Source of the DNA: Candidatus Aenigmatarchaeota archaeon | GTDB lineage: Archaea; Aenigmatarchaeota; Aenigmatarchaeia; QMZP01 | Direction of reading: 5' to 3' | Assembly: GCA_039091855.1 (NCBI GenBank) | Contig: JAWCLA010000012.1 | Span: 1-12,255, forward strand | Length of the DNA stretch: 12,255 nucleotides | Shown: positions 1,053 through 10,781 of the stretch, piece after piece | How the letters are laid out: each line of letters starts with the position of its first letter | Numbering within the stretch: the stretch's first letter is position 1 | Translations under genes and position numbers: made by a program | The notes under the pieces: generated by a model | Database searches by the model: none | What the model was told of the DNA's origin: nothing | Seen by the model: only the letters and a program-made list of their open reading frames with translations

Positions 1053-1244
1053 TCACTTTTTAGATTTTTTATTGCTCTCGTGCACCCCGTGCCTGTACAT
1101 ATACTTAAGCCCCATGTAAGGCGTGATGTTCTTTTTCAGGTCGGCCTCCATTTTTGCCCTGAGGCGGCGCATAGCAAGCGCTATTCCAAGGAAAAGCAGT
1201 GAAAGGACTGCAAGAAGCATGTCCATTATGGTAACCTCGCTCAT
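1053..1244 (-). CDS. Small single-pass membrane protein (63 aa), last gene of the coiled-coil operon
   Basis: Hydrophobic segment MLLAVLSLLFLGIALAM followed by basic RRLR. ATGA overlap with the stop of the upstream 447-aa gene; GAGG upstream of the ATG. Confidence 0.7.
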   Translation of the reverse strand: MSEVTIMDMLLAVLSLLFLGIALAMRRLRAKMEADLKKNITPYMGLKYMYRHGVHESNKKSKK

Positions 1245-2584
1245 AACACTGCCTCGCTGTTTATTGCTGGAGCAGAAGGTGCAGGCAGGCTTTCGTTTGG
1301 TTTTGCATCCTTTGGAATTTCAGGCGGAAGGGGTTTCTGTATTTTTTGCTTCTGGGTTTTTTTCCTCTCCTCCTTCAGCTCCTTTACCGCATCAGTGAGC
1401 ATCTTCATCGCTTCCATCATAGGTGTCAGCCCATCCTTCAACGCTTTCTCGACCGTTTCCATCCTGCTCCTCGCGTCCGCAACCGATTCGGCATAAACCT
1501 GTATCTTTTCCTCAAGCCTGTCCAAATCAGCAGGTTTTTGCACCTGCATCTTGGAAATGGCATTCTCGAGAGAAGCAATCCTTTCCGCTATAGAACTTAC
1601 GCTGTTGTTCATCTCCTCAACAGAACTCTTGAACTCCTCAACGTTTTCTTCCATTTTTGATGTTTTTTTTGCGGAATGTTTCTCTATAAGGTCGTCAACG
1701 TCAAAATCAATGTCGTCCATTTCGTCTGTCTCTGGGACAAACCTTGGAAAAAACTTTCTCGGTGCAGGAGAGCCGTGCGTGAATGGCGGCTCGGGAAGCC
1801 CTGAAACAGGCTCTATTTCAACTGGTCTTGAGAAAGTGCGCTCTGGCTGTGGAGGTGCAGGCAACTTCCTTTCTGTTTTTGTCTCTGCCTCTCCTGAATA
1901 AGATTTTTCAGGAACTGGCTTTTCGGTGCCAGCCCTTGAAACAAACTCCCTGAGCGTAGATAGCTTTTCATAAACCAGCTCTGCCTTTCTTGTCTCCTCT
2001 TCCATCTTATTTAATGCCTCGCTTATTTGAGAAAGAGATTTCTCGAGCTTTTTCTCGTAACCCCCTGAAAGAGAGTCTATCTGCGACTTTACATCAACCC
2101 TCAGCTTTCTCATCTCGCTGTCCCTTTCCTCAATTTTCTCCGAAAGGTTTTTTGCCATTTCAGAGAGTGATGATATTTTCTTGTCCATCAGCTTGAACAT
2201 TTCCTCATACTTGGAAGTGTTTATTTGGGATGAAAGCTCTGTTCTTGTTTTTTTGATTTCGGCGTCCTTTTCGCTCAGCTTTTCGGAAAGGTTTTTTGCC
2301 ATTTCAGAGAGCGATGAAATCCTCTTGTCCATAAGCCTGAAGCTCTCTTCTGTTTTCTTTCCAATCTTTGCGAGGGTTTCTTCCATCATCTCTATCCTTT
2401 CCTCGAAGTTTGCTATGGATTTCTCCATCTCCGACATTTTTTCAGAGTTAGAGTCAACAAGCTCCTTGAGCTGCTGGGCAAGTTCCCTGTATCTCGACTT
2501 CCAAAGCTCTTCCTTTTCCTTAAGGCTCAAAATCCTGCTCTCTATTTTTTTGTAAATGTTCCTTTCGCCTGCTTTCAATACCAT
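1241..2584 (-). CDS. Coiled-coil protein (447 aa): N-terminal coiled coil, Pro-rich linker, second helical/coiled-coil domain, Pro-rich tail
   Basis: Long ORF with E/K-rich heptads. Linker LPAPPQPE...PEPPFTHGSPAP and tail KPLPPEIPKDAKPNESLPAPSAP. Starts 1 nt after the stop of the 1020-aa gene, with GAGGG upstream. Confidence 0.88.
   Translation of the reverse strand: MVLKAGERNIYKKIESRILSLKEKEELWKSRYRELAQQLKELVDSNSEKMSEMEKSIANFEERIEMMEETLAKIGKKTEESFRLMDKRISSLSEMAKNLSEKLSEKDAEIKKTRTELSSQINTSKYEEMFKLMDKKISSLSEMAKNLSEKIEERDSEMRKLRVDVKSQIDSLSGGYEKKLEKSLSQISEALNKMEEETRKAELVYEKLSTLREFVSRAGTEKPVPEKSYSGEAETKTERKLPAPPQPERTFSRPVEIEPVSGLPEPPFTHGSPAPRKFFPRFVPETDEMDDIDFDVDDLIEKHSAKKTSKMEENVEEFKSSVEEMNNSVSSIAERIASLENAISKMQVQKPADLDRLEEKIQVYAESVADARSRMETVEKALKDGLTPMMEAMKMLTDAVKELKEERKKTQKQKIQKPLPPEIPKDAKPNESLPAPSAPAINSEAVL
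2142..2311. repeat. Intragenic 144-nt (48-aa) tandem duplication in the 447-aa gene
   Basis: GAAAGGTTTTTTGCCATTTCAGAGAG is identical at 2142-2167 and 2286-2311. Protein: FRLMDKRISSLSEMAKNLSEK versus FKLMDKKISSLSEMAKNLSEK. Confidence 0.9.
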
Positions 2585-2585
2585 A

Positions 2586-5500
2586 TCATTCGCCCTCTTT
2601 CAGCATCTCATAGAGTTTTATCTGCTCTTCCTTCCATTCCTTTATGCCGTTCTTGAGCTCTTCCATCTCGTTGACTATTCCTGATATCTCCGCTTTCATT
2701 GATTCGTGTTTAGATAAGATGGAATTTATCTCGCCTGAAATCCTCCTAAGTATCTCATCCCTTGACTCAGAAATTCTTTTTTCAAGCTTCTTGTCCTCAA
2801 TTCCCTCTGTCTCAATCATCTTCACAACTCTTGTAAGGACAGATTCCATTCCCTTTATGTATTCCTGTTGCGCGGAAAGCCTCTTCTCAATCTGACGGAT
2901 TAATCCTTCGTTCTTTGCCTGCTCCTTTGCCATAAGCTCAAGCGCTGACTGGTGCTTCTCAATCCTCGAGGCAATCTCAGAATCATATGACTGCATCTTC
3001 TTCAATGTAAGCCCTGCCTCTGAAATCATTTTCTGAAGTGATTGCCTTGCAGAATCAGCATCTTTAAGCTGTTTGGCAAGAGCTGATGTTATTGCCGGAT
3101 ATTTCTTCATCTCGCTTTCAAGTGACTTTATCCTTTCCAGAACAGCCTTTCTTTCTGAAAGTATTTTCGAGTCAGATGACTGCCTAAAGGTCAGGATTGA
3201 CTGCTCAACCTTCTTTATCCTGTCGGAGATCTCCTCCTCAGATTTCCTGAACCTTTCATCAAGTTGTTTGGACATCTCGTTAAGCTTTGATATGGTTTGT
3301 GTTATAGACCTTACGCTTTCAGAAAGCCTTGCCTTCTCTTCAAGAAGGGCTTTCCTTTCTCTTGATATCTGTTCAGACAGTTCTGCTGCCCTTCTCTCCA
3401 TCTGCTCTGAAAGTGATGCTGTTTTTTGAAGGAAGGCTCTTCTATCCTCCTTTATCTCCCTTTCGAGGATTTTTCTTGCCTCTGATAAACTCCTTTTCTC
3501 GGAAGCCACGTGCGAGTAAACCTGTGAGATTTTGTTTTCAAGCGATTTCTCAACTACTGACATCCTTGAAGAAATCTCTTTATGCGATTCCATAATCTTT
3601 CTTTCAATGTCAGAATCTGCCTTTTCCAAACTTTTTCTCTCCAAAGAAAGCCTGTCTTCAAGCTCCTTAAGCCTGCTGTCAAGTCCTTCCAAAACCTCAC
3701 TGATTTTTGAATCAAAATTCTTGGAAACGGATGAAATCCTGCTTTCAAGGTTTTCGGTTGTTTTTTCGCTGAACGAATTCATTGTTGAGTCAACGAGGTC
3801 GAGGTGTTTTTTCTGGCTCGCCAAAAGCCCTGCCCTGAACTGCTCAAGCCTCGTGTTTGTCTTTTCCTCGAACCCTTTCAGCGCATCGGAAAGCCTTTTC
3901 TCGAAGTCTCTGTCATTGATTTTTATACCCTCAATTTTTTTGGACAGTGTGGAAATTTTTGCATCAATATCCTTTACAAGCCCTGCCTTGAAATCTGAAA
4001 TTTTTGCTTCAAGAAGCTCTGCCTGCCTCTTTTGCCACAGCTCTGAGGAAGACTTTGTTTTTGTCATCTTAAGGTCAATTTCCTTTTCAAAATCCTTCAT
4101 TTTTTCTGCAAGCTTTTCCTCAAACTTCCTGTCCATTGACTTAAGCTCTTCTGTTTTTCTGGAAATAACAGAAATCTTTTCATCAATCATCCTTTCTATA
4201 TCCGATTTTTCAGAAGCAATTCTATCTGCAAGTTCAGATATCCTTGAATCCAAGCTCTCAGACAGAGAATCTATCTTCGATTGCGCCTGCTCTGCAACAG
4301 AGTTTATTTTTTGTTCTATTCGGCTGTCTTGATTCCTTAAAAGAGACTCTGACTTTTTTATGTGACCTTCTATCCTTTTCGTAATTTCTGACTCCCTTGA
4401 AGAAAATGATTTCTTAATTTCGGAAAGCTCTTTTTCAAACCTTGTCCTTTGCAAACTCTGCTCCTCGGAAATCCCTGAAACCCTTTTTTCAAGGCTGTCC
4501 GAAACTGCCTTGACTTTGGATAACAGGATTTCTTCGTGCCTTTTCTGGCTCTCTCGAAGCCCTGATTTCATATTTTCTGTTTTGCTGTCAATCTTTTCCT
4601 CGAACCCTTTCAGCGCATCGGAAAGCCTTTTCTCGAAGTCCTTGTCCTCGAGCTTTAGGGATTCGAGCCTTTTTGAAAGGGAAGCCAGCCTTGAACTCAC
4701 TTCGGAGGAAAGTGAGGAGATTTTTGAGTCGAGAAGTTGGGAGTGCTTTTTGTCTTGGGAATCAATAATGGATTTTAGTTTGACCTCCTTATCTGCCAGC
4801 ATTTTCTCATAGGAATTTCTTATTTGGGAAAGCCTTTTCTCAAGCCTTTCATCCTCAATACCTATGCTGTCAATTTTTCTTGTTATCTTACCGACAGAGG
4901 ATTCAAGCGCTCTTATTGCAGCCTGCTGGCTTGAAAGCTTCTTCTCTATGTTGGCATCAGAAACGCGGGAGTTCTCAAGGCTTTTTTTCAGGGAGGCTGC
5001 TGTTGCCTTCAACTGCTTTACAAAAAGCTCGGTGTCCGCGACCCTCTTTTTTGTCTCCTCGTAGGAGGCTGCAAGAGCCCTCAGCGAGTCCATGGAATCT
5101 TGAAGCACTTCCTCGGAGGATTCTGTTATCTTCAGGGACATCCTGTCTTCAAGGGTCTTCAGCCTTGAATCAAAATGGTTTTTAATTTCGGAGATTGCGG
5201 ATTCTACGTCTCCCTCCTCCTTTGACTCCCTTTCCCTTATCTTGTTTACTTGCTCTCTTAAAACAGAAAGGTTTGCACCTATCCTGCGGAGCGATTTCTC
5301 GTTTTCAGCTATCCTCTTCCTTGCCTCCTCGTCAGCCAACCTTGTCTTTGAAAGCAAGGAAGAGAGTCCTCTTATCTCCTGCTCAAGCTCCGATATCCTT
5401 CGCGCCTCTGCCCTTATCTCGGAGATCTGGTCCTTTATTGGGGTTATCTCCTTGTCAACAAAATCAAGGATTCTCTTTCCAGCCTCCTCGTAAACCATAT

Positions 5501-5648
5501 AAGCCTCGGCAAGCTTCTGGCCAAGAAACCTTGTCCTCTCCAAAAGGAAAGCCCTGTCCTTCTCGAGCTGTTCTATCATCTGCTTCTGGCTCTGAGAATT
5601 TTTTTTCAGCTTCTCTATCCCCGAGCTTAGCTCTTCAATCTCTTTCAT
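2586..5648 (-). CDS. Very long all-helical coiled-coil protein (1020 aa) with internal repeat modules
   Basis: Long ORF rich in S/E/K/L/I with almost no Pro. No Walker A, ABC signature or hinge is visible, so it is not a true SMC/Rad50. Confidence 0.9.
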   Translation of the reverse strand: MKEIEELSSGIEKLKKNSQSQKQMIEQLEKDRAFLLERTRFLGQKLAEAYMVYEEAGKRILDFVDKEITPIKDQISEIRAEARRISELEQEIRGLSSLLSKTRLADEEARKRIAENEKSLRRIGANLSVLREQVNKIRERESKEEGDVESAISEIKNHFDSRLKTLEDRMSLKITESSEEVLQDSMDSLRALAASYEETKKRVADTELFVKQLKATAASLKKSLENSRVSDANIEKKLSSQQAAIRALESSVGKITRKIDSIGIEDERLEKRLSQIRNSYEKMLADKEVKLKSIIDSQDKKHSQLLDSKISSLSSEVSSRLASLSKRLESLKLEDKDFEKRLSDALKGFEEKIDSKTENMKSGLRESQKRHEEILLSKVKAVSDSLEKRVSGISEEQSLQRTRFEKELSEIKKSFSSRESEITKRIEGHIKKSESLLRNQDSRIEQKINSVAEQAQSKIDSLSESLDSRISELADRIASEKSDIERMIDEKISVISRKTEELKSMDRKFEEKLAEKMKDFEKEIDLKMTKTKSSSELWQKRQAELLEAKISDFKAGLVKDIDAKISTLSKKIEGIKINDRDFEKRLSDALKGFEEKTNTRLEQFRAGLLASQKKHLDLVDSTMNSFSEKTTENLESRISSVSKNFDSKISEVLEGLDSRLKELEDRLSLERKSLEKADSDIERKIMESHKEISSRMSVVEKSLENKISQVYSHVASEKRSLSEARKILEREIKEDRRAFLQKTASLSEQMERRAAELSEQISRERKALLEEKARLSESVRSITQTISKLNEMSKQLDERFRKSEEEISDRIKKVEQSILTFRQSSDSKILSERKAVLERIKSLESEMKKYPAITSALAKQLKDADSARQSLQKMISEAGLTLKKMQSYDSEIASRIEKHQSALELMAKEQAKNEGLIRQIEKRLSAQQEYIKGMESVLTRVVKMIETEGIEDKKLEKRISESRDEILRRISGEINSILSKHESMKAEISGIVNEMEELKNGIKEWKEEQIKLYEMLKEGE
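3860..4640. repeat. Exact 49-nt direct repeat inside the 1020-aa gene (3860-3908 and 4592-4640)
   Basis: TCTTTTCCTCGAACCCTTTCAGCGCATCGGAAAGCCTTTTCTCGAAGTC occurs twice, 732 nt (244 codons) apart. It encodes DFEKRLSDALKGFEEK. Confidence 0.93.
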
Positions 5649-5668
5649 AACCGCTTAAAGGAGAGTAA

Positions 5669-7516
5669 CTATTCTGCCTTCAGCTCCCTCAGGAGCCCGC
5701 TTATCCTCATCCTTTCCCTTTTTATTTTCTCCTCGACGCTCTTCCTTTCAAGAGAGACCTGCCTTATTTCGGATTCAAGCCTTGCCCTGTCAGATGCAAG
5801 CTGGCTTTCAAGCTTTGACTGCCTTTCCTTAAGGCTGGAAATCTCGGAATCCATCTTCCTTACTTGTGCAGAAAGCCCTTCCTTTTCTGCAAGCTTCTTC
5901 TGAATGGCTTTCAGGGAGGCATCTGCCTGAGAAATCCTTTCCCTGAGTGATTTTATCTCAGCAATGCTTCTCTGCAGGCTTGCAACATTTTCTGAAACAT
6001 CATCAAACCTGCTTTCGGCATCCCTAAGATTTTGTTCAAGCAACACTATTCTCTCCCTGTCAGCAGCCATTCTCTGCTCTATTGACTTTATAGATGACGA
6101 TAAAATCTCCGCCCTCTTTGAGAAAACATCCCTGACATCAATAACCTTGTTGATTGTTGCTGCCTGGTCGCTCATCTTCTTGGAAAGTTCTGCCATAAAA
6201 GAGTCTGTTGACTTCTGCTTCTCCCTGAGGCTTGCTATCTGGTCAGAATTCCTCTCAGATGATTTCTTCAGTCCCTGAATGTCATAATAGAACTTTCTCT
6301 CCAGGTTCTTTGACTTTTCATCAATCCACCTTCTCAAGTTTTCAGGAGCCTCCATCTCCTCTACTGTCTCAAGAATCTCCCTGTCCTTTTCGGACAAAGT
6401 CCTTAACTTCTCGTCCACAATCATATTATGTTTCTCGAGCTCCTGAAACCTCGGCTCGAAAAGCTCGACAACTATGTCCTTCACATTTGACTCCAGAACC
6501 TTTGGTGTTGTGTACTGCTGCATCTTGACAAGCTGCTCGTGATATTTCTCCATCATCTTTTCCATTCTCTTTCTTATGTTCATCTTGAGTATCTCAAGTC
6601 CCTGAAGGAATCTTGCCTCCTCTTCTGCAAACTTCTTGTATGCCTTTTCCTTTTCAGCCCTGAGCTCGTTTATTGTCTCCCTGAACTTCTTCAGTTCCTT
6701 TACCTCGTCTTCAAGCGAGCCTGCCCTTTTCTCAAGCTCACTTATCATATCCCTGCTTGACTTCAGGCTGTTCACTATCGGTTCTATCCTCTTTTTAATC
6801 TTCCTGTTAACCGTTTCGGGTATCGCTTCCTCCATAAGCTCGTCAGCGGAAAATATAATCTTCTTGAGCTTCTGTATGTTCTCTGCGCCGAGCTTGTCGT
6901 TTATCTCCCTGTACTGGGTTTCGAGCTCCTTCAGCTTCTCAAGCTCCTTTACCTTGTCTTCCAGGGAGGAAAGCCTGTACTCAACCTTCTTGCTCATTGT
7001 TGCAATAGTCTGGTTTAACGTGTCTATTGACCTTTTCACTTCTGTGAGTTCGGTTTGGAAATCAATTTGCTCCCCAAAGGCAGCAAGTCCTTGTGACACA
7101 ACTCCCGGCTGCTTTGGCTGATAAAGAGGGCTGCTCAATCTCTCGTTAAGCTGCATCACCTTTTCACCTATGTCCTTTATCTTGTCAAGCTCCTTCAGCC
7201 TTTCTGATATTTCTGCAATCTTTGGGTCAATCTTTTCCTTCATTGCGGCAGCAACCTGCTTCTTAACCTCATCCTTGTCCTTGCCGGAGGCGGCTATGCT
7301 TTCCTCGAGCTTTTTTATCTTGGCGTCAAACCTCTCACCAATCTCTTTCAGAACTGATTCTATGTTTCCTGTGTCAGGCTTGTTGTCAGAAAGTGTTTCT
7401 ATTATTTCAGCAAGGCTTTTGCTCTTCTCAGTCAGCTCGGCCTTTTCCTTTTCCAGCTGCTCAAGCTTCTTCTTTGCTTCCTGAAGTTCCTTTTCTATGA
7501 GCTGCCCCTCTGCCAT
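5669..7516 (-). CDS. Long coiled-coil protein (~615 aa)
   Basis: E/K-rich heptad ORF. The ATG at 7516 is preferred over the GTG at 7525 because it sits 1 nt after the upstream TAA, the same spacing as the 1020/447-aa junction. Confidence 0.88.
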   Translation of the reverse strand: MAEGQLIEKELQEAKKKLEQLEKEKAELTEKSKSLAEIIETLSDNKPDTGNIESVLKEIGERFDAKIKKLEESIAASGKDKDEVKKQVAAAMKEKIDPKIAEISERLKELDKIKDIGEKVMQLNERLSSPLYQPKQPGVVSQGLAAFGEQIDFQTELTEVKRSIDTLNQTIATMSKKVEYRLSSLEDKVKELEKLKELETQYREINDKLGAENIQKLKKIIFSADELMEEAIPETVNRKIKKRIEPIVNSLKSSRDMISELEKRAGSLEDEVKELKKFRETINELRAEKEKAYKKFAEEEARFLQGLEILKMNIRKRMEKMMEKYHEQLVKMQQYTTPKVLESNVKDIVVELFEPRFQELEKHNMIVDEKLRTLSEKDREILETVEEMEAPENLRRWIDEKSKNLERKFYYDIQGLKKSSERNSDQIASLREKQKSTDSFMAELSKKMSDQAATINKVIDVRDVFSKRAEILSSSIKSIEQRMAADRERIVLLEQNLRDAESRFDDVSENVASLQRSIAEIKSLRERISQADASLKAIQKKLAEKEGLSAQVRKMDSEISSLKERQSKLESQLASDRARLESEIRQVSLERKSVEEKIKRERMRISGLLRELKAE

Positions 7517-7517
7517 C

Positions 7518-7799
7518 TTACTCACTCAATCCCTTTATCAACTTCTCTATAACAGCCTCCTGCCTTTCAATCCTTGCCTGAATCTCTCTCATTTTGAGCC
7601 CTATATCATCTATTTTTGTTTTAAGTTCTGAATTTATTGTATATTTGTCCAACTCTTTGGAAAAATCTGACATTCCAAGCCCTGGCAAAAAGCGATAGTA
7701 GTGAAGCCTTTCCTGATAGACCTTGTTTATTTTGTAAAACTCATACGTCAAGAAGCAAACAGAACCTACCAGGGCCACGAACAAGGCAAGTTCAAACAT
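7518..7799 (-). CDS. Small membrane-anchored coiled-coil protein (93 aa), first gene of the operon
   Basis: N-terminal hydrophobic helix MFELALFVALVGSVCFLTYEFY and C-terminal coiled coil KTKIDDIGLKMREIQARIERQEAVIEKLIKGL. Confidence 0.8.
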   Translation of the reverse strand: MFELALFVALVGSVCFLTYEFYKINKVYQERLHYYRFLPGLGMSDFSKELDKYTINSELKTKIDDIGLKMREIQARIERQEAVIEKLIKGLSE

Positions 7800-7993
7800 A
7801 TAAAAATATTGGAATCAGGGTTTATTAATGAAATTGTATAAATATAATAGTATAAATATATTAAAAAAATGGCAAAAAAAAATTTGCCATAAAATAGTGT
7901 GTCAGAACAAAATCGAGGGTGGTCGCTGCCATAACTTGCCTTTCGTCAAAAATCTATATTAGGAATGTACAATAATTTGAGGGATTGGTACTC
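7800..7993. promoter_or_regulatory. AT-rich divergent promoter region
   Basis: Lies between divergently transcribed genes. GTATAAATATA direct repeat at 7836-7846 and 7850-7860 (TATA-like). TTAATAAA on the minus strand at 7828-7821, about 22-29 nt upstream of the 7799 ATG, fits a leaderless archaeal promoter. Confidence 0.55.
7869..7890. promoter_or_regulatory. Perfect inverted repeat ATGGCAAA-N6-TTTGCCAT, candidate operator
   Basis: 8-bp arms at 7869-7876 and 7883-7890 with an A6 spacer, inside the divergent intergenic region. Confidence 0.45.
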
Positions 7994-8644
7994 ATGCCGA
8001 AACTTACTGACTATAAGAATTTCTGGCTTATCTGGCTTAGCGCTGCTGGAAGGCCTCAAGGCATATCGCTTTTCACCATACAGAATGAGTGGGGGATAAA
8101 GACGAACTACCTGTATCACGAGGAGGCAGGGTTGGGCAAGCCATTGTACGTGACTATGATAAGGGATGGGTATCTAATTAAGGAAGGAAGAAAGATAAAA
8201 GTAAAGTTTGACTGGATTACAGATTTCATTAAAGAAAGGTATCAGCCTTCAGGATTTGTTGACTATTGGATTCCTTACAGGATTATAGGCAGCAAGTGGC
8301 CTGATGTTCAGTCATTTATCGAAAAGCATTCATCTGTGCTCTTCGACCCGAAGAACCTCAGGATACTTTACAGGAATAACAAGGATATACTTGGTGATTG
8401 CGGCCAGCACATTTTCACTGACATATTTATATACGTTCTGTTCAGCAACCTGATAGTTTTCTGCAAGAAGTACAAGGCGGAAATCGTTTTGAGAATCCTT
8501 CTTACAGCCTTCTCGATGTTCACTGAGAGGGATATTATGAACTACATGAGGCAAATTCACAGCCAGATAGGAAAGGAAGTTCCCTTGATAATAAAGGATG
8601 AGGCAGAAATGAATGCTCTTATGAGTCCGTTTAACTGGGGCTAA
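7994..8644 (+). CDS. Hypothetical protein (~216 aa), possible N-terminal winged-helix-like domain
   Basis: Clean ORF. The ATG at 7994 has GAGGG ~10 nt upstream (the ORF track starts at TTG 7985). SLFTIQNEWGIKTNYLYH...LYVTMIRDGYLIKEGRKIKV has a helix-helix-wing-like pattern; the fold assignment is inference. Confidence 0.78.
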   Translation: MPKLTDYKNFWLIWLSAAGRPQGISLFTIQNEWGIKTNYLYHEEAGLGKPLYVTMIRDGYLIKEGRKIKVKFDWITDFIKERYQPSGFVDYWIPYRIIGSKWPDVQSFIEKHSSVLFDPKNLRILYRNNKDILGDCGQHIFTDIFIYVLFSNLIVFCKKYKAEIVLRILLTAFSMFTERDIMNYMRQIHSQIGKEVPLIIKDEAEMNALMSPFNWG

Positions 8645-8785
8645 AATTTGACTGGGTTAATTTTATATGAAAATTCGCTCAATAGCAGGTTTTTATTGCT
8701 TGGGGAGAATTATTATACAAGTGATTGGGTTCGGCAGGTGTTAAGTTCATATATCCTCTAAATCGCAAAGTTAAAAACAAGACAA

Positions 8786-8870
8786 TGACGACTTTGACCA
8801 ACTGAATCAGGTCGTCTTTCCAAAACCGGATTGACGAATTCGACCAACATAATAAATTCGTCTTTCCAAA
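8786..8870. repeat. Two 39-nt stem-loop direct repeats (8786-8824, 8832-8870)
   Basis: T-GACGACTT-TGACCAACTGAATC-AGGTCGTC-TTTCCAAA and T-GACGAATT-CGACCAACATAATA-AATTCGTC-TTTCCAAA. Confidence 0.85.
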
Positions 8871-8874
8871 TCCT

Positions 8875-9357
8875 GTCACAAGGCGAAGCGCAATTGGAAG
8901 GCAGTGTAACTGCCTTCTCCGTTGAGTAGCAAAGACAACCAACAACAATGTTAATTGTAACAAGGCGAATGTTAAGTGGAAGTTCCGAAGGAACTTCTCC
9001 GTCAAGTCACAATGTTAAACAATGGCAAAGCAAAATGTAACAAGGCGAATGTTAAGTGGAAGTTGGCGAAGCCGACTTCTCCGTCACTGTCGCTTTGAGT
9101 ATAAGTCACAAGGCGAAGCATAATTGGAAGTTCCGAAGGAACTTCTCCGTTGAGTAGCAAAGATAACCAATAAAAATGTGAACTGTAACAAGGCGAATGT
9201 TAAGTGGAAGTTCCGAAGGAACTTCTCCGTCAAGTCACAATGTTAAACAATGGCAAAGCAAAATGTAACAAGGCGAATGTTAAGTGGAAGTTCCGAAGGA
9301 ACTTCTCCGTTGAGTAGCAAAGACAAGCAACAACAATGTTAATTGTAACAAGGCGAA
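8875..9357. repeat. Array of ~46-nt hairpin repeats with mostly 34-nt linkers (CRISPR-like architecture, no cas genes in window)
   Basis: GT(A/C)ACAAGGCGAA starts at 8875, 8957, 9037, 9105, 9185, 9265 and 9345 (spacings 82, 80, 68, 80, 80, 80). Consensus unit GTAACAAGGCGAATGTTAAGTGGAAGTTCCGAAGGAACTTCTCCGT. The seventh copy is truncated. Confidence 0.95.
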
Positions 9358-9361
9358 GTAT

Positions 9362-10138
9362 ATGACAAGGATAACAGGCGTGGTTTCTGGAAAGGGTGGT
9401 GTTGGAAAGACAACACTTGTTGCAAATCTCGGAGCTGCCCTTGCCTCCTTCTACAAGAAGAGAGTGATAATAGTTGACTGCAATGTGACCACTTCTCACC
9501 TCGGTCTTTATCTTGGTATGTATTACCATCCTGTCTCTCTCAACCAGGTTTTGAGGGGAGAGGCGTCAATGGATGAGGCTATTTATGATTATACCATACC
9601 TGGATTGAAGGTGATACCAGCATCGCTTTCGCTTGATGAACTCAAAGGTGTGGACATAAGCGAACTCAAATACAGGATAAAGGACCTTTTTGGCAAGGCG
9701 GACATAGTCTTTCTGGACTCTGCACCCGGTCTGGGAAAGGAAGGTCTCGCAACCCTGAGGGCAAGCGATGAAATTCTTTTTGTTACAACTCCCTTTGTTC
9801 CTCACGTGATAGATGTGATAAAGTGCTACCAAATCGCAAAGGAGGTTGGAGCTAAACCACTTGGGCTTGTTGTTAACATGTCAGGGGAAGGAAGGCACGA
9901 GTTAAGCCCTCAGGACATAGAAAAATTAGTGGAGCTTCCTGTTATCTCGATAATCCCGAGGGACAAGCACATTCTAAGAAGCCTTGCATCTAAAATCCCT
10001 GTCGTCGACCTTAACCCAAACTCCCCTGCCAGCAGGGAAATCAAAAGGCTTGCGGCAGCCATACTAGGGGAGGAATACAAGCCTTACAAGCCAAAGAGGC
10101 TGGAGAGGCTGATAAGGGCGATGAGAATAAGGAGATGA
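9362..10138 (+). CDS. minD: MinD-family (MinD/ParA superfamily) P-loop ATPase
   Basis: Deviant Walker A SGKGGVGKTT, VIIVDCN, VFLDSAPG, GLVVNM and IIPRD. Lacks the DxDPQGN motif typical of ParA/Soj. Basic amphipathic C-terminus KRLERLIRAMRIRR resembles a membrane-targeting helix. Confidence 0.88.
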   Translation: MTRITGVVSGKGGVGKTTLVANLGAALASFYKKRVIIVDCNVTTSHLGLYLGMYYHPVSLNQVLRGEASMDEAIYDYTIPGLKVIPASLSLDELKGVDISELKYRIKDLFGKADIVFLDSAPGLGKEGLATLRASDEILFVTTPFVPHVIDVIKCYQIAKEVGAKPLGLVVNMSGEGRHELSPQDIEKLVELPVISIIPRDKHILRSLASKIPVVDLNPNSPASREIKRLAAAILGEEYKPYKPKRLERLIRAMRIRR

Positions 10139-10265
10139 TTACAAAGTTTTTACCATAGTGCCAATTTTTACATCAATCAAAGTTGCTGTTATAAAAAATC
10201 TTATTATACATTTAAACAAAATTATTATAGCAAACAAACATTCTGGCTTCCGTCAGGAGCTTCAT
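10139..10265 (+). promoter_or_regulatory. AT-rich promoter region and RBS of the KaiC-like/PAS gene pair
   Basis: TTATTATA at 10201-10208 and 10222-10229 with TTTAAA between them. AGGAG just upstream of the ATG at 10266. Confidence 0.45.
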
Positions 10266-10781
10266 ATGAAAGGACCCGTGGCCTCTGGAAAGGGTGAAAT
10301 AGAGGTGTTGGTTTTTTCTGACAAGGATTACTCCAAAAAAATCATTGAATTGTCGTCATCAGTCTCTTCGTCTTTCAGCAGGATATGCTATGTCACGCTT
10401 AACAAGCCGTTTTCTGTTGTTTCTGAAAGCCTTAAAAAGTCAGGCGTAAGCACAGAAAAATTCTTCTTTGTCGACTGCACAGGTAAGCCCGAAAGAAAAG
10501 AAGGGCAGGCAGTCTATGTGTCTTCTCCGAAGGCATTGACAGAAATGAGCATAACGATAACAAAGGTTCTGGAATTGGGAAAGGTTGATGCCCTTATTTT
10601 TGACTCGCTTTCCACTCTTATGATTTATGAGGAGCCTTCTGTTGTCCTGAAATTTTTCCATTCAGTTCTGTCATCCCTAAGGTCAAGGAGGGTGTCGGGA
10701 TTTTTCGTCTGCCTTAAGGGCGGAACGGGCTCGGGGGTTTTGAAAGACATCTCTATGTTTGCTGACAGGGTGGTGGAATGA
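10266..10781 (+). CDS. Inactive KaiC/RecA-fold ATPase-like protein (~171 aa)
   Basis: Motifs ICYVTLNKP, FFFVDC, SSPKALTEMSITI, LIFDSLSTLMIY and VLKFFHSV are typical of archaeal single-domain KaiC-like proteins. No Walker A GKT/S. Start placed at ATG 10266 (AGGAG RBS) rather than 10158. Confidence 0.75.
   Translation: MKGPVASGKGEIEVLVFSDKDYSKKIIELSSSVSSSFSRICYVTLNKPFSVVSESLKKSGVSTEKFFFVDCTGKPERKEGQAVYVSSPKALTEMSITITKVLELGKVDALIFDSLSTLMIYEEPSVVLKFFHSVLSSLRSRRVSGFFVCLKGGTGSGVLKDISMFADRVVE

Follow-up and report, generated by a model that had tools for sequence, protein, structure and literature searches.

Positions 8875-9357 of the analysed stretch of DNA (12,255 nt from a Candidatus Aenigmatarchaeota archaeon, called the window throughout) carry a real, non-coding and unusual hairpin repeat that lies, over about 480 bases, 5′ of an archaeal minD gene and is apparently constrained. 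The array comprises six full hairpin units of ∼80 nt and a truncated seventh. Judged by the comparisons described below, it is no CRISPR array and belongs to none of the families tested. The array is tentatively explained as a transcribed, modular, structured 5′ leader RNA of minD; on the evidence of the sequence this explanation is given a probability of about 0.4.

Organisation of the array

The elements of the array, in order along the window, are as follows.

8878-8922, + strand: core of unit 1 (U1), with 5′ box (8878-8887), 8 variable nt, hairpin 8896-8918 (10 bp, GTA loop) and CCGT tail
8923-8956, + strand: linker B1, 34 nt, A/C-rich, contains AATGTTAA
8960-9002, + strand: core of unit 2 (U2), with hairpin 8978-8998 (9 bp, GAA loop)
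9003-9036, + strand: linker A1, 34 nt, the same as A2, identical to the B linkers at 19-20 of 34 positions
9040-9084, + strand: core of unit 3 (U3), with hairpin 9058-9080 (10 bp including one internal U.G, GAA loop)
9085-9104, + strand: short linker C, 20 nt, carries an anti-box at 9090-9097
9108-9150, + strand: core of unit 4 (U4), with hairpin 9126-9146
9151-9184, + strand: linker B2, 34 nt
9188-9230, + strand: core of unit 5 (U5), with hairpin 9206-9226
9231-9264, + strand: linker A2, 34 nt, matches A1 at 34 of 34 positions
9268-9310, + strand: core of unit 6 (U6), with hairpin 9286-9306
9311-9344, + strand: linker B3, 34 nt
9348-9357, + strand: truncated seventh copy, 5′ box alone (19.1 bits with the covariance model), Shine-Dalgarno-like region of minD, 4 nt from its ATG

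Every unit opens with a prefix of 4 nt, followed by the 10-nt 5′ box (ACAAGGCGAA), which is invariant, and by 8 nt that vary. Next come GGAAG, the inner stem with its loop, CTTCTCCGT and finally a linker. The box was found in seven exact copies, on the + strand only, at 8878, 8960, 9040, 9108, 9188, 9268 and 9348, and the units follow one another at start-to-start distances of 82, 80, 68, 80, 80 and 80 nt. When one mismatch was allowed, 8 sites were obtained (the extra one at 8472) against 0.81 expected, and none of 200 shuffled sequences reached 8; the full-core pattern of the unit occurred six times in the window and not once in 200 shuffles. A covariance model (R1) was built from the six unit cores and run over the 12-kb window. 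It recovered the six full copies with 64.3-80.6 bits as well as the truncated copy, and gave nothing above 10.6 bits in the rest of the window, so that by this model no unit lies outside the array. The exact box search, the full-core pattern and the covariance model thus confirm the six full copies and one truncated copy at 8875-9357 that had been described earlier from the letters (the sequence-only reading). Tandem Repeats Finder reported the 3′ part alone (9108-9357; period 80, 3.1 copies, 80% matches, score 297). The array is richer in A than the window (36.2% vs 26.4%). The motif AATGTTAA occurs eight times between 8947 and 9342, all within the array and against 0.55 expected, and is the source of every ATG in the array.

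U1 and U3 have hairpin stems of 10 bp, that of U3 including one internal U.G; the hairpins of U2, U4, U5 and U6 have 9 bp and are mutually identical. The loop is always 3 nt long and of the form G-N-A (GTA once, GAA five times), and the outermost pair is G.T (G.U as RNA) in all six units. Nearly every position of the inner stem differs among U1, U3 and the U2 type, yet each stem is complementary throughout. The proposal that the hairpin is conserved as a structure and not as a sequence is borne out by these three distinct inner stems, all of which are paired and closed by a G-N-A loop.

The seventh box is read as Shine-Dalgarno-like since it sits where such an element is expected, with its end 4 nt short of the ATG of minD. 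In the gene that follows, by way of comparison, GGAG precedes the likely ATG (10266). The segment 9090-9097 of linker C is an 8-nt anti-box to the box segment 9041-9048 (seven Watson-Crick pairs and one G.U), and owing to this complementarity unit 3 is predicted to form a single long, extended hairpin (−27.4 kcal/mol with z −4.19, a level reached by 1 of 200 shuffles), and this hairpin also appears in the predicted fold of the whole leader. The anti-box could pair with any of the seven boxes, including that of minD itself. Estimated post hoc, a match of this kind would turn up by chance in the unique non-box sequence with a probability of about 0.02.

Linkers and growth of the array

Five linkers of 34 nt and one of 20 nt had been recorded in the sequence-only reading, with coordinates and lengths that are correct, as is the statement that the linkers recur, unlike CRISPR spacers: A1 equals A2, and the B linkers, none of which is identical to another, agree at 28-33 of 34 positions (B1 vs B3 33/34; B2 vs the other two 28-29/34). 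The further claim that the two 34-nt types are unrelated does not hold: in ungapped register the A and B linkers agree at the 19-20 positions listed above, a level matched by 15-36 of 20,000 shuffles. By this measure both types go back to a single ancestral linker, from which they have diverged.

A block of 151 nt (8914-9064) recurs at 9142-9292 with 97% identity, and the units are mosaic, as in U6, in which a U2-type core is joined to a B linker. By these identities, the array is one 80-nt tandem repeat with an old A/B split, later block duplications and mosaic units. Given the shared ancestry of the linkers and growth by block duplication, the equal length of 34 nt is inherited from the common linker. 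It had been taken earlier as a sign of constrained spacing, an argument that falls away on this account and also because the 20-nt linker of U3 breaks the spacing.

Signs of constraint

Over all 15 pairs of units, no difference was found at the 24 box positions, whereas a comparison of A with B linkers shows 14-15 differences in 34 positions (∼42%). Between U1 and U4, 8 of 45 positions outside boxes and stems differ. RNAalifold showed 3 of 18 pairs that were changed on both sides with pairing retained. At the divergence seen in the linkers, 24 unchanged box positions appear very unlikely without selection or gene conversion limited to the core (estimate ∼0.58^24). The main argument for a constrained, functional core is the invariance of the boxes next to linkers that differ at ∼42% of positions, taken with three different stems that are all complementary. 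Frozen boxes together with three different, fully paired stems at this one locus are suggestive rather than conclusive of a functional core under constraint. The support from covariation is thin as it comes from three distinct stems at a single locus, and palindromes can also be regenerated without selection by template switching.

Intergenic setting, strand and coding potential

The array lies in a gap of 717 nt between the stop of the upstream gene (8644) and the minD ATG (9362); two thirds of this gap is hairpin repeat. DPANN archaea have small, tightly packed genomes, in which a gene-free gap of 717 nt is unusual. The features around the array are as follows.

7985-8644, + strand: upstream protein gene, 219 aa (TTG start; 216 aa from the first ATG), small unnamed family
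8746-8753, + strand: TATA-like box, 1 mismatch to the archaeal consensus; a lead only
8786-8827 and 8832-8873, + strand: two tandem copies of a class-I hairpin unit directly 5′ of the array, 46-nt spacing, 81% identical
9362-10138, + strand: minD, 258 aa, archaeal MinD subfamily (TIGR01969, 223 bits, cut-off 201.75)

Both genes flanking the gap are on the + strand, and no + strand ORF of more than 40 aa is present in the gap. The array is considered non-coding because its period of 80 is not a multiple of 3, because the longest + strand ORF has 40 aa and because the stem of U3, 2 nt longer, shifts the frame. Small ORFs within the units (23-40 aa) were considered as the purpose of the array and rejected: an ATG is missing in two of the six units, U3 brings a frameshift, and the start lies only 3 nt past the GG of the box.

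TATA-like matches on the + strand of the gap are restricted to 8662-8669 and 8746-8753, both 5′ of the array and none within it; over the window such matches are not enriched (26 vs 27.8 expected). No terminator-like site was predicted on the + strand between 7400 and 9600, and thus none between array and minD, by a bacterial-type model that is weak for an archaeon.

Folded as RNA, the U3 hairpin reaches −13.2 kcal/mol on the + strand vs −8.7 kcal/mol on the − strand. For the whole leader, the + strand gives −166.4 kcal/mol (z −5.10, 0 of 100 shuffles as good) and the − strand −162.7 kcal/mol (z −4.18). The wobble pairs appear to fit the + strand only; the asymmetry between the strands consists of one internal wobble pair and the terminal G.U pairs. 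The class-I hairpins share a conserved GACCAAC loop segment and a TTTCCAAA tail, and their stems differ between the two copies by C-G to A-T, changed on both sides, and by U.G to U-A; as RNA they fold slightly better on the − strand. A helix masking the minD start codon is not supported: the best duplex between the leader and the minD initiation region (−22.4 kcal/mol) is no better than chance, as 87 of 300 shuffles reach that value.

Flanking proteins

The product of minD exceeds the cut-off of the archaeal MinD model and falls far below that of the ParA_partition model (48.6 bits, cut-off 180); by these scores the downstream gene is a bona fide archaeal MinD. A protein search with MinD gave 2,042 sequences with E ≤ 0.001 among 4,814 candidates, and the few named ones among the best 120 of the 2,042 are from Candidatus Aenigmatarchaeota (DPANN). 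The close relatives P0002-P0020 are 83-89% identical to the MinD of the window. One near-identical MinD (P0001), with a single substitution, is recorded as partial: on its contig of 3,682 bases the sequence starts only at residue 10 (9389 onward in the window), so that the other assembly broke ∼30 nt past the array. A break at this place fits a repeat that breaks short-read assemblies.

The 219-aa protein encoded upstream has no match in Pfam, NCBIfam or PADLOC and 23 relatives among 1.84 billion cluster representatives. Its structure is predicted with a pLDDT of 90.7. No significant neighbour was found in the PDB, and the weak top matches (E ∼0.5 and above) are mostly winged-helix proteins (MntR, VanR, PadR, MarR). 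A winged helix in the N-terminal part is a possibility, and no more than a lead.

Searches for related sequences

Rfam gave no match at E ≤ 1 for the whole window; at E ≤ 10, the region 8640-9400 gave three noise matches of 12-16 bits, compared with gathering scores of 40-42. The Rfam comparison proposed in the sequence-only reading was thus carried out, and no family, CRISPR repeat families included, reached its gathering threshold. No tRNA or tmRNA was detected. By eye, K-turn, box C/D and H/ACA motifs were rejected, the required G.A pairs, boxes or pocket being missing. A blastn search with 8640-9400 against plasmid and phage collections gave no match.

A two-box pattern with variable gaps, run against 185,579 species-representative genomes, gave 45 single matches in unrelated taxa, with ∼10 chance matches estimated for uniform base composition. 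A second full unit accompanied none of the 45, a second isolated box lay within 600 nt in 3, and none had a fully paired triloop hairpin. The best of them scored 22.2 bits with the covariance model, compared with 64-81 bits for true copies; being single, lacking the hairpin and scoring 22.2 bits at most, the 45 were rejected as related units and are regarded as chance matches. A dispersed element of the REP/BIME or MITE type should be present in many copies over its genome; outside the array, no copy was seen in the 12-kb window or in these representative genomes.

The 108-aa antisense ORF over the array had no match at similar or shorter lengths among 5.8 billion predicted proteins. Two relatives of MinD with N-terminally over-called starts (P0009 and P0010, 86-87% identical) allowed their upstream translations to be compared with the array; no significant likeness was found, 187 and 405 of 500 shuffles, respectively, being as good. 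The translation upstream of P0010 has a colinear VP..L.R / NC / AK pattern, which is not significant. Among the papers found on tandem repeats of Aenigmarchaeota, none deals with such an array, judging from titles and the opening parts of the abstracts. The antisense-ORF search and the two upstream translations weakly point to an array restricted to this lineage.

Proposed role as a leader of minD

If the array is a leader RNA, the 717-nt gap would be transcribed on the + strand, from a promoter 5′ of the array or by read-through, as a long 5′ leader on the mRNA of minD. First in this leader would stand the two class-I hairpins (8786-8873), and after them six modules of ∼80 nt, each of them a stable hairpin of 9-10 bp capped by a G-N-A triloop and clamped by two invariant single-stranded boxes, with A/C-rich and weakly structured linkers joining the modules. 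The 5′ box of every module would copy the ribosome-binding box of minD, and the leader would thereby offer six extra copies of what the initiation region presents. In cis, the modules may act as iterated binding sites or as decoys for a factor that reads this box, candidates for which are the small ribosomal subunit and an RNA-binding repressor. In addition, the stable hairpins may shield the leader from decay, and the two effects combined would set the output of MinD. The anti-box at 9090-9097 could pair with any box, the real one included. Since each module repeats the ribosome-binding box of minD, an iterated binding or decoy platform is the most economical function that can be suggested. 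From the sequence features named here we infer that the gap is transcribed and on which strand, that it acts as RNA and that it does so through decoys or binding.

A leader is favoured by the + orientation of both genes, the TATA-like boxes 5′ of the array, the lack of a terminator-like site, the retained stem structure and the wobble pairs of the + strand; further points are the use of the seventh copy as the ribosome-binding region of minD, the invariance of the boxes and the non-coding nature of the array. Counted against it are the chance frequency of the TATA-like matches and the better folding of the class-I hairpins on the − strand, as well as the lack of any sign of the array in the upstream translations of relatives, the species-representative genomes, the antisense-ORF search and Rfam. 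Of the kinds of explanation considered, a role as structured RNA or as iterated binding sites, put forward in the sequence-only reading, is still the most reasonable.

RNAs with iterated protein-binding hairpins are known as sponges or leaders, for example CsrB/RsmZ and the TRAP-binding trp leader. The array resembles these in having many short motifs, similar to a ribosome-binding site, on or beside hairpins in what would here be a single transcript. It differs from them in that the motif stands beside the hairpin and not in the loop, and in that no CsrA-like or TRAP-like protein was seen. A bolder version of the leader would be a new class of modular riboregulator, in which six decoy ribosome-binding boxes and one anti-box titrate ribosomes or an RNA-binding protein and so set the dose of a MinD/ParA-type positioning ATPase of this genome-reduced DPANN archaeon, or which is cut into ∼80-nt hairpin RNAs working with that ATPase; this version is distinctly unlikely.

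Should the array function as a leader RNA, it would provide a rare instance of post-transcriptional control in uncultured DPANN symbionts, and one that concerns an archaeal MinD. We know of no established role of archaeal MinD outside the haloarchaea. In Haloferax, MinD proteins position the motility machinery and affect cell shape, according to excerpts of two reports (PMC11588486; bioRxiv 10.1101/2020.04.03.021790).

Alternative explanations

A young, fast-evolving minisatellite without sequence-specific function is somewhat unlikely, and would have arisen by replication slippage, or by unequal recombination, starting from the hairpin; its use would be at most that of a copy-number "contingency" tract that alters the distance from promoter to gene. 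Very recent duplications (A1 = A2, B1 and B3 alike at 33 of 34 positions, the 97% identical 151-nt blocks) and mosaic units such as U6 are what such a repeat would leave, and the absence of any trace in the two upstream translations, the antisense-ORF search and the species-representative genomes, together with the break ∼30 nt past the array in the assembly of the near-identical MinD, points the same way. Fast-evolving archaeal Borg tandem repeats, as far as excerpts of PMC9879509 describe them, are likewise archaeal, intergenic and A-enriched, with a flanking partial unit and a length that is not a multiple of 3, and recent duplication marks the evolution of both; some Borg repeats are predicted to form hairpins and have been suggested as regulatory RNAs. 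Borg units are perfect, with one intergenic example of 20 nt, and reside on extrachromosomal elements of Methanoperedens (PMC9879509, excerpts), whereas the units before minD are 80 nt long and imperfect (80% matches), combine invariant boxes with diverged linkers and stand at a chromosomal-looking DPANN locus and not on a Borg. A repeat without function also sits poorly with boxes that are invariant while homologous linkers differ at ∼42% of positions, and with three different stems that keep perfect pairing and the G-N-A loop. Were the array no more than a minisatellite, its main significance would be as a strain marker and a hazard for assembly. As a further alternative, the number of units or their order could have been introduced by the assembly. 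The 151-nt blocks at 97% identity exceed the usual assembly k-mers, and a second, near-identical assembly broke beside the array; U1, U3, U4, B1, B2, B3 and C are each unique and serve as anchors, and the copies are imperfect, unlike the usual collapsed or expanded repeat; an artefact is considered very unlikely.

Sites acting at the level of DNA, whether operator or centromere-like, for a DNA-binding protein that works with the ParA/MinD-type ATPase are unlikely. Some plasmid partition centromeres, such as sopC of F and the parC/parH types, consist of direct repeats that contain inverted repeats and lie beside a ParA-family gene, and the array likewise has iterated units with an internal dyad immediately 5′ of a gene for a ParA/MinD-superfamily ATPase. 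The invariant boxes could be the recognised sequence, and the 219-aa neighbour is one candidate for the protein, its model being confident and its nearest, non-significant PDB neighbours mostly winged-helix regulators. This assignment is non-significant, and the protein is without a Pfam or NCBIfam match. The ATPase is a conserved archaeal MinD, scoring above the MinD cut-off and far under that for ParA partition, and no gene of the ParB/CBP family was found in the window with Pfam and NCBIfam. The dyad varies in sequence among the copies and contains G.T mismatches as DNA, and a spacing of 80 bp would correspond to 7.6 helical turns, poor phasing for an array bound on one face of the DNA and a point in favour of the leader. 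A multimeric RNA that is cut into ∼80-nt units and acts in trans, in the manner of type III toxin-antitoxin repeats or crRNA precursors, is highly improbable. As in ToxI of type III systems, tandem structured units with a partial unit at the end stand directly 5′ of a partner protein gene. The ToxI repeat measures 36 nt, so that the unit is about twice as long. The partner is MinD and not an endoribonuclease of the ToxN, AbiQ, CptN or TenpN type, PADLOC found no match for it, the window encodes no processing enzyme, and array and minD are not separated by a terminator-like site (bacterial-type model). Type III antitoxins are described, in excerpts of PMC8860590, as multiple RNA repeats bound by their toxin.

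The description of the array as CRISPR-like holds for the layout, with palindromic direct repeats of 46-48 nt at regular intervals of 34 nt, and not beyond it; an orphan or degenerate CRISPR array is hardly credible. The intervals are homologous to one another and recur, the inner stems of U1 and U3 are wholly unlike those of U2, U4, U5 and U6, and the final repeat breaks off where minD has its ribosome-binding site. Rfam showed no match to a CRISPR repeat family, and the lack of a cas gene in the window, noted earlier, was borne out for its nine large ORFs (Pfam and PADLOC; NCBIfam on eight of the nine). CRISPR arrays, type III toxin-antitoxin systems, ParABS centromeres and Borg-type repeats each fail at least one of the defining features tested.

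Remaining genes of the window

Elsewhere in the window, Pfam identified an AAA_14/DUF4143 ATPase, three large coiled-coil proteins, a KaiC-like protein and a PAS-rich sensor. The ATPase gene (1-1038) is cut by the edge of the window, matches the PADLOC candidate defence family PDC-S01 (E 5.5e-40) and has a G+C content of 0.31-0.34, compared with ∼0.40-0.48 for the remaining window. On the − strand, 1241-7525 encodes three consecutive coiled-coil proteins (447, 1020 and 618 aa) and a protein of 93 aa; their matches to SMC/Rad50-type coiled coils are all below threshold, and no ATPase head domain was found in them with Pfam or NCBIfam. The gene for the 1020-aa protein contains an internal repeat of 66 nt (3860-3925 vs 4592-4657, 91% identical). 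The KaiC-like/DUF7504 ORF at 10158-10781 was listed from GTG 10158; its real start looks like ATG 10266, which is preceded by GGAG and has an AT-rich stretch upstream. The stop of this ORF overlaps the start of the PAS-rich sensor gene at 10778. The divergent intergenic region at 7800-7984 is AT-rich and contains a 14-nt tandem repeat (7832-7860) and, on the − strand, a hairpin followed by a T-run (7890-7869).
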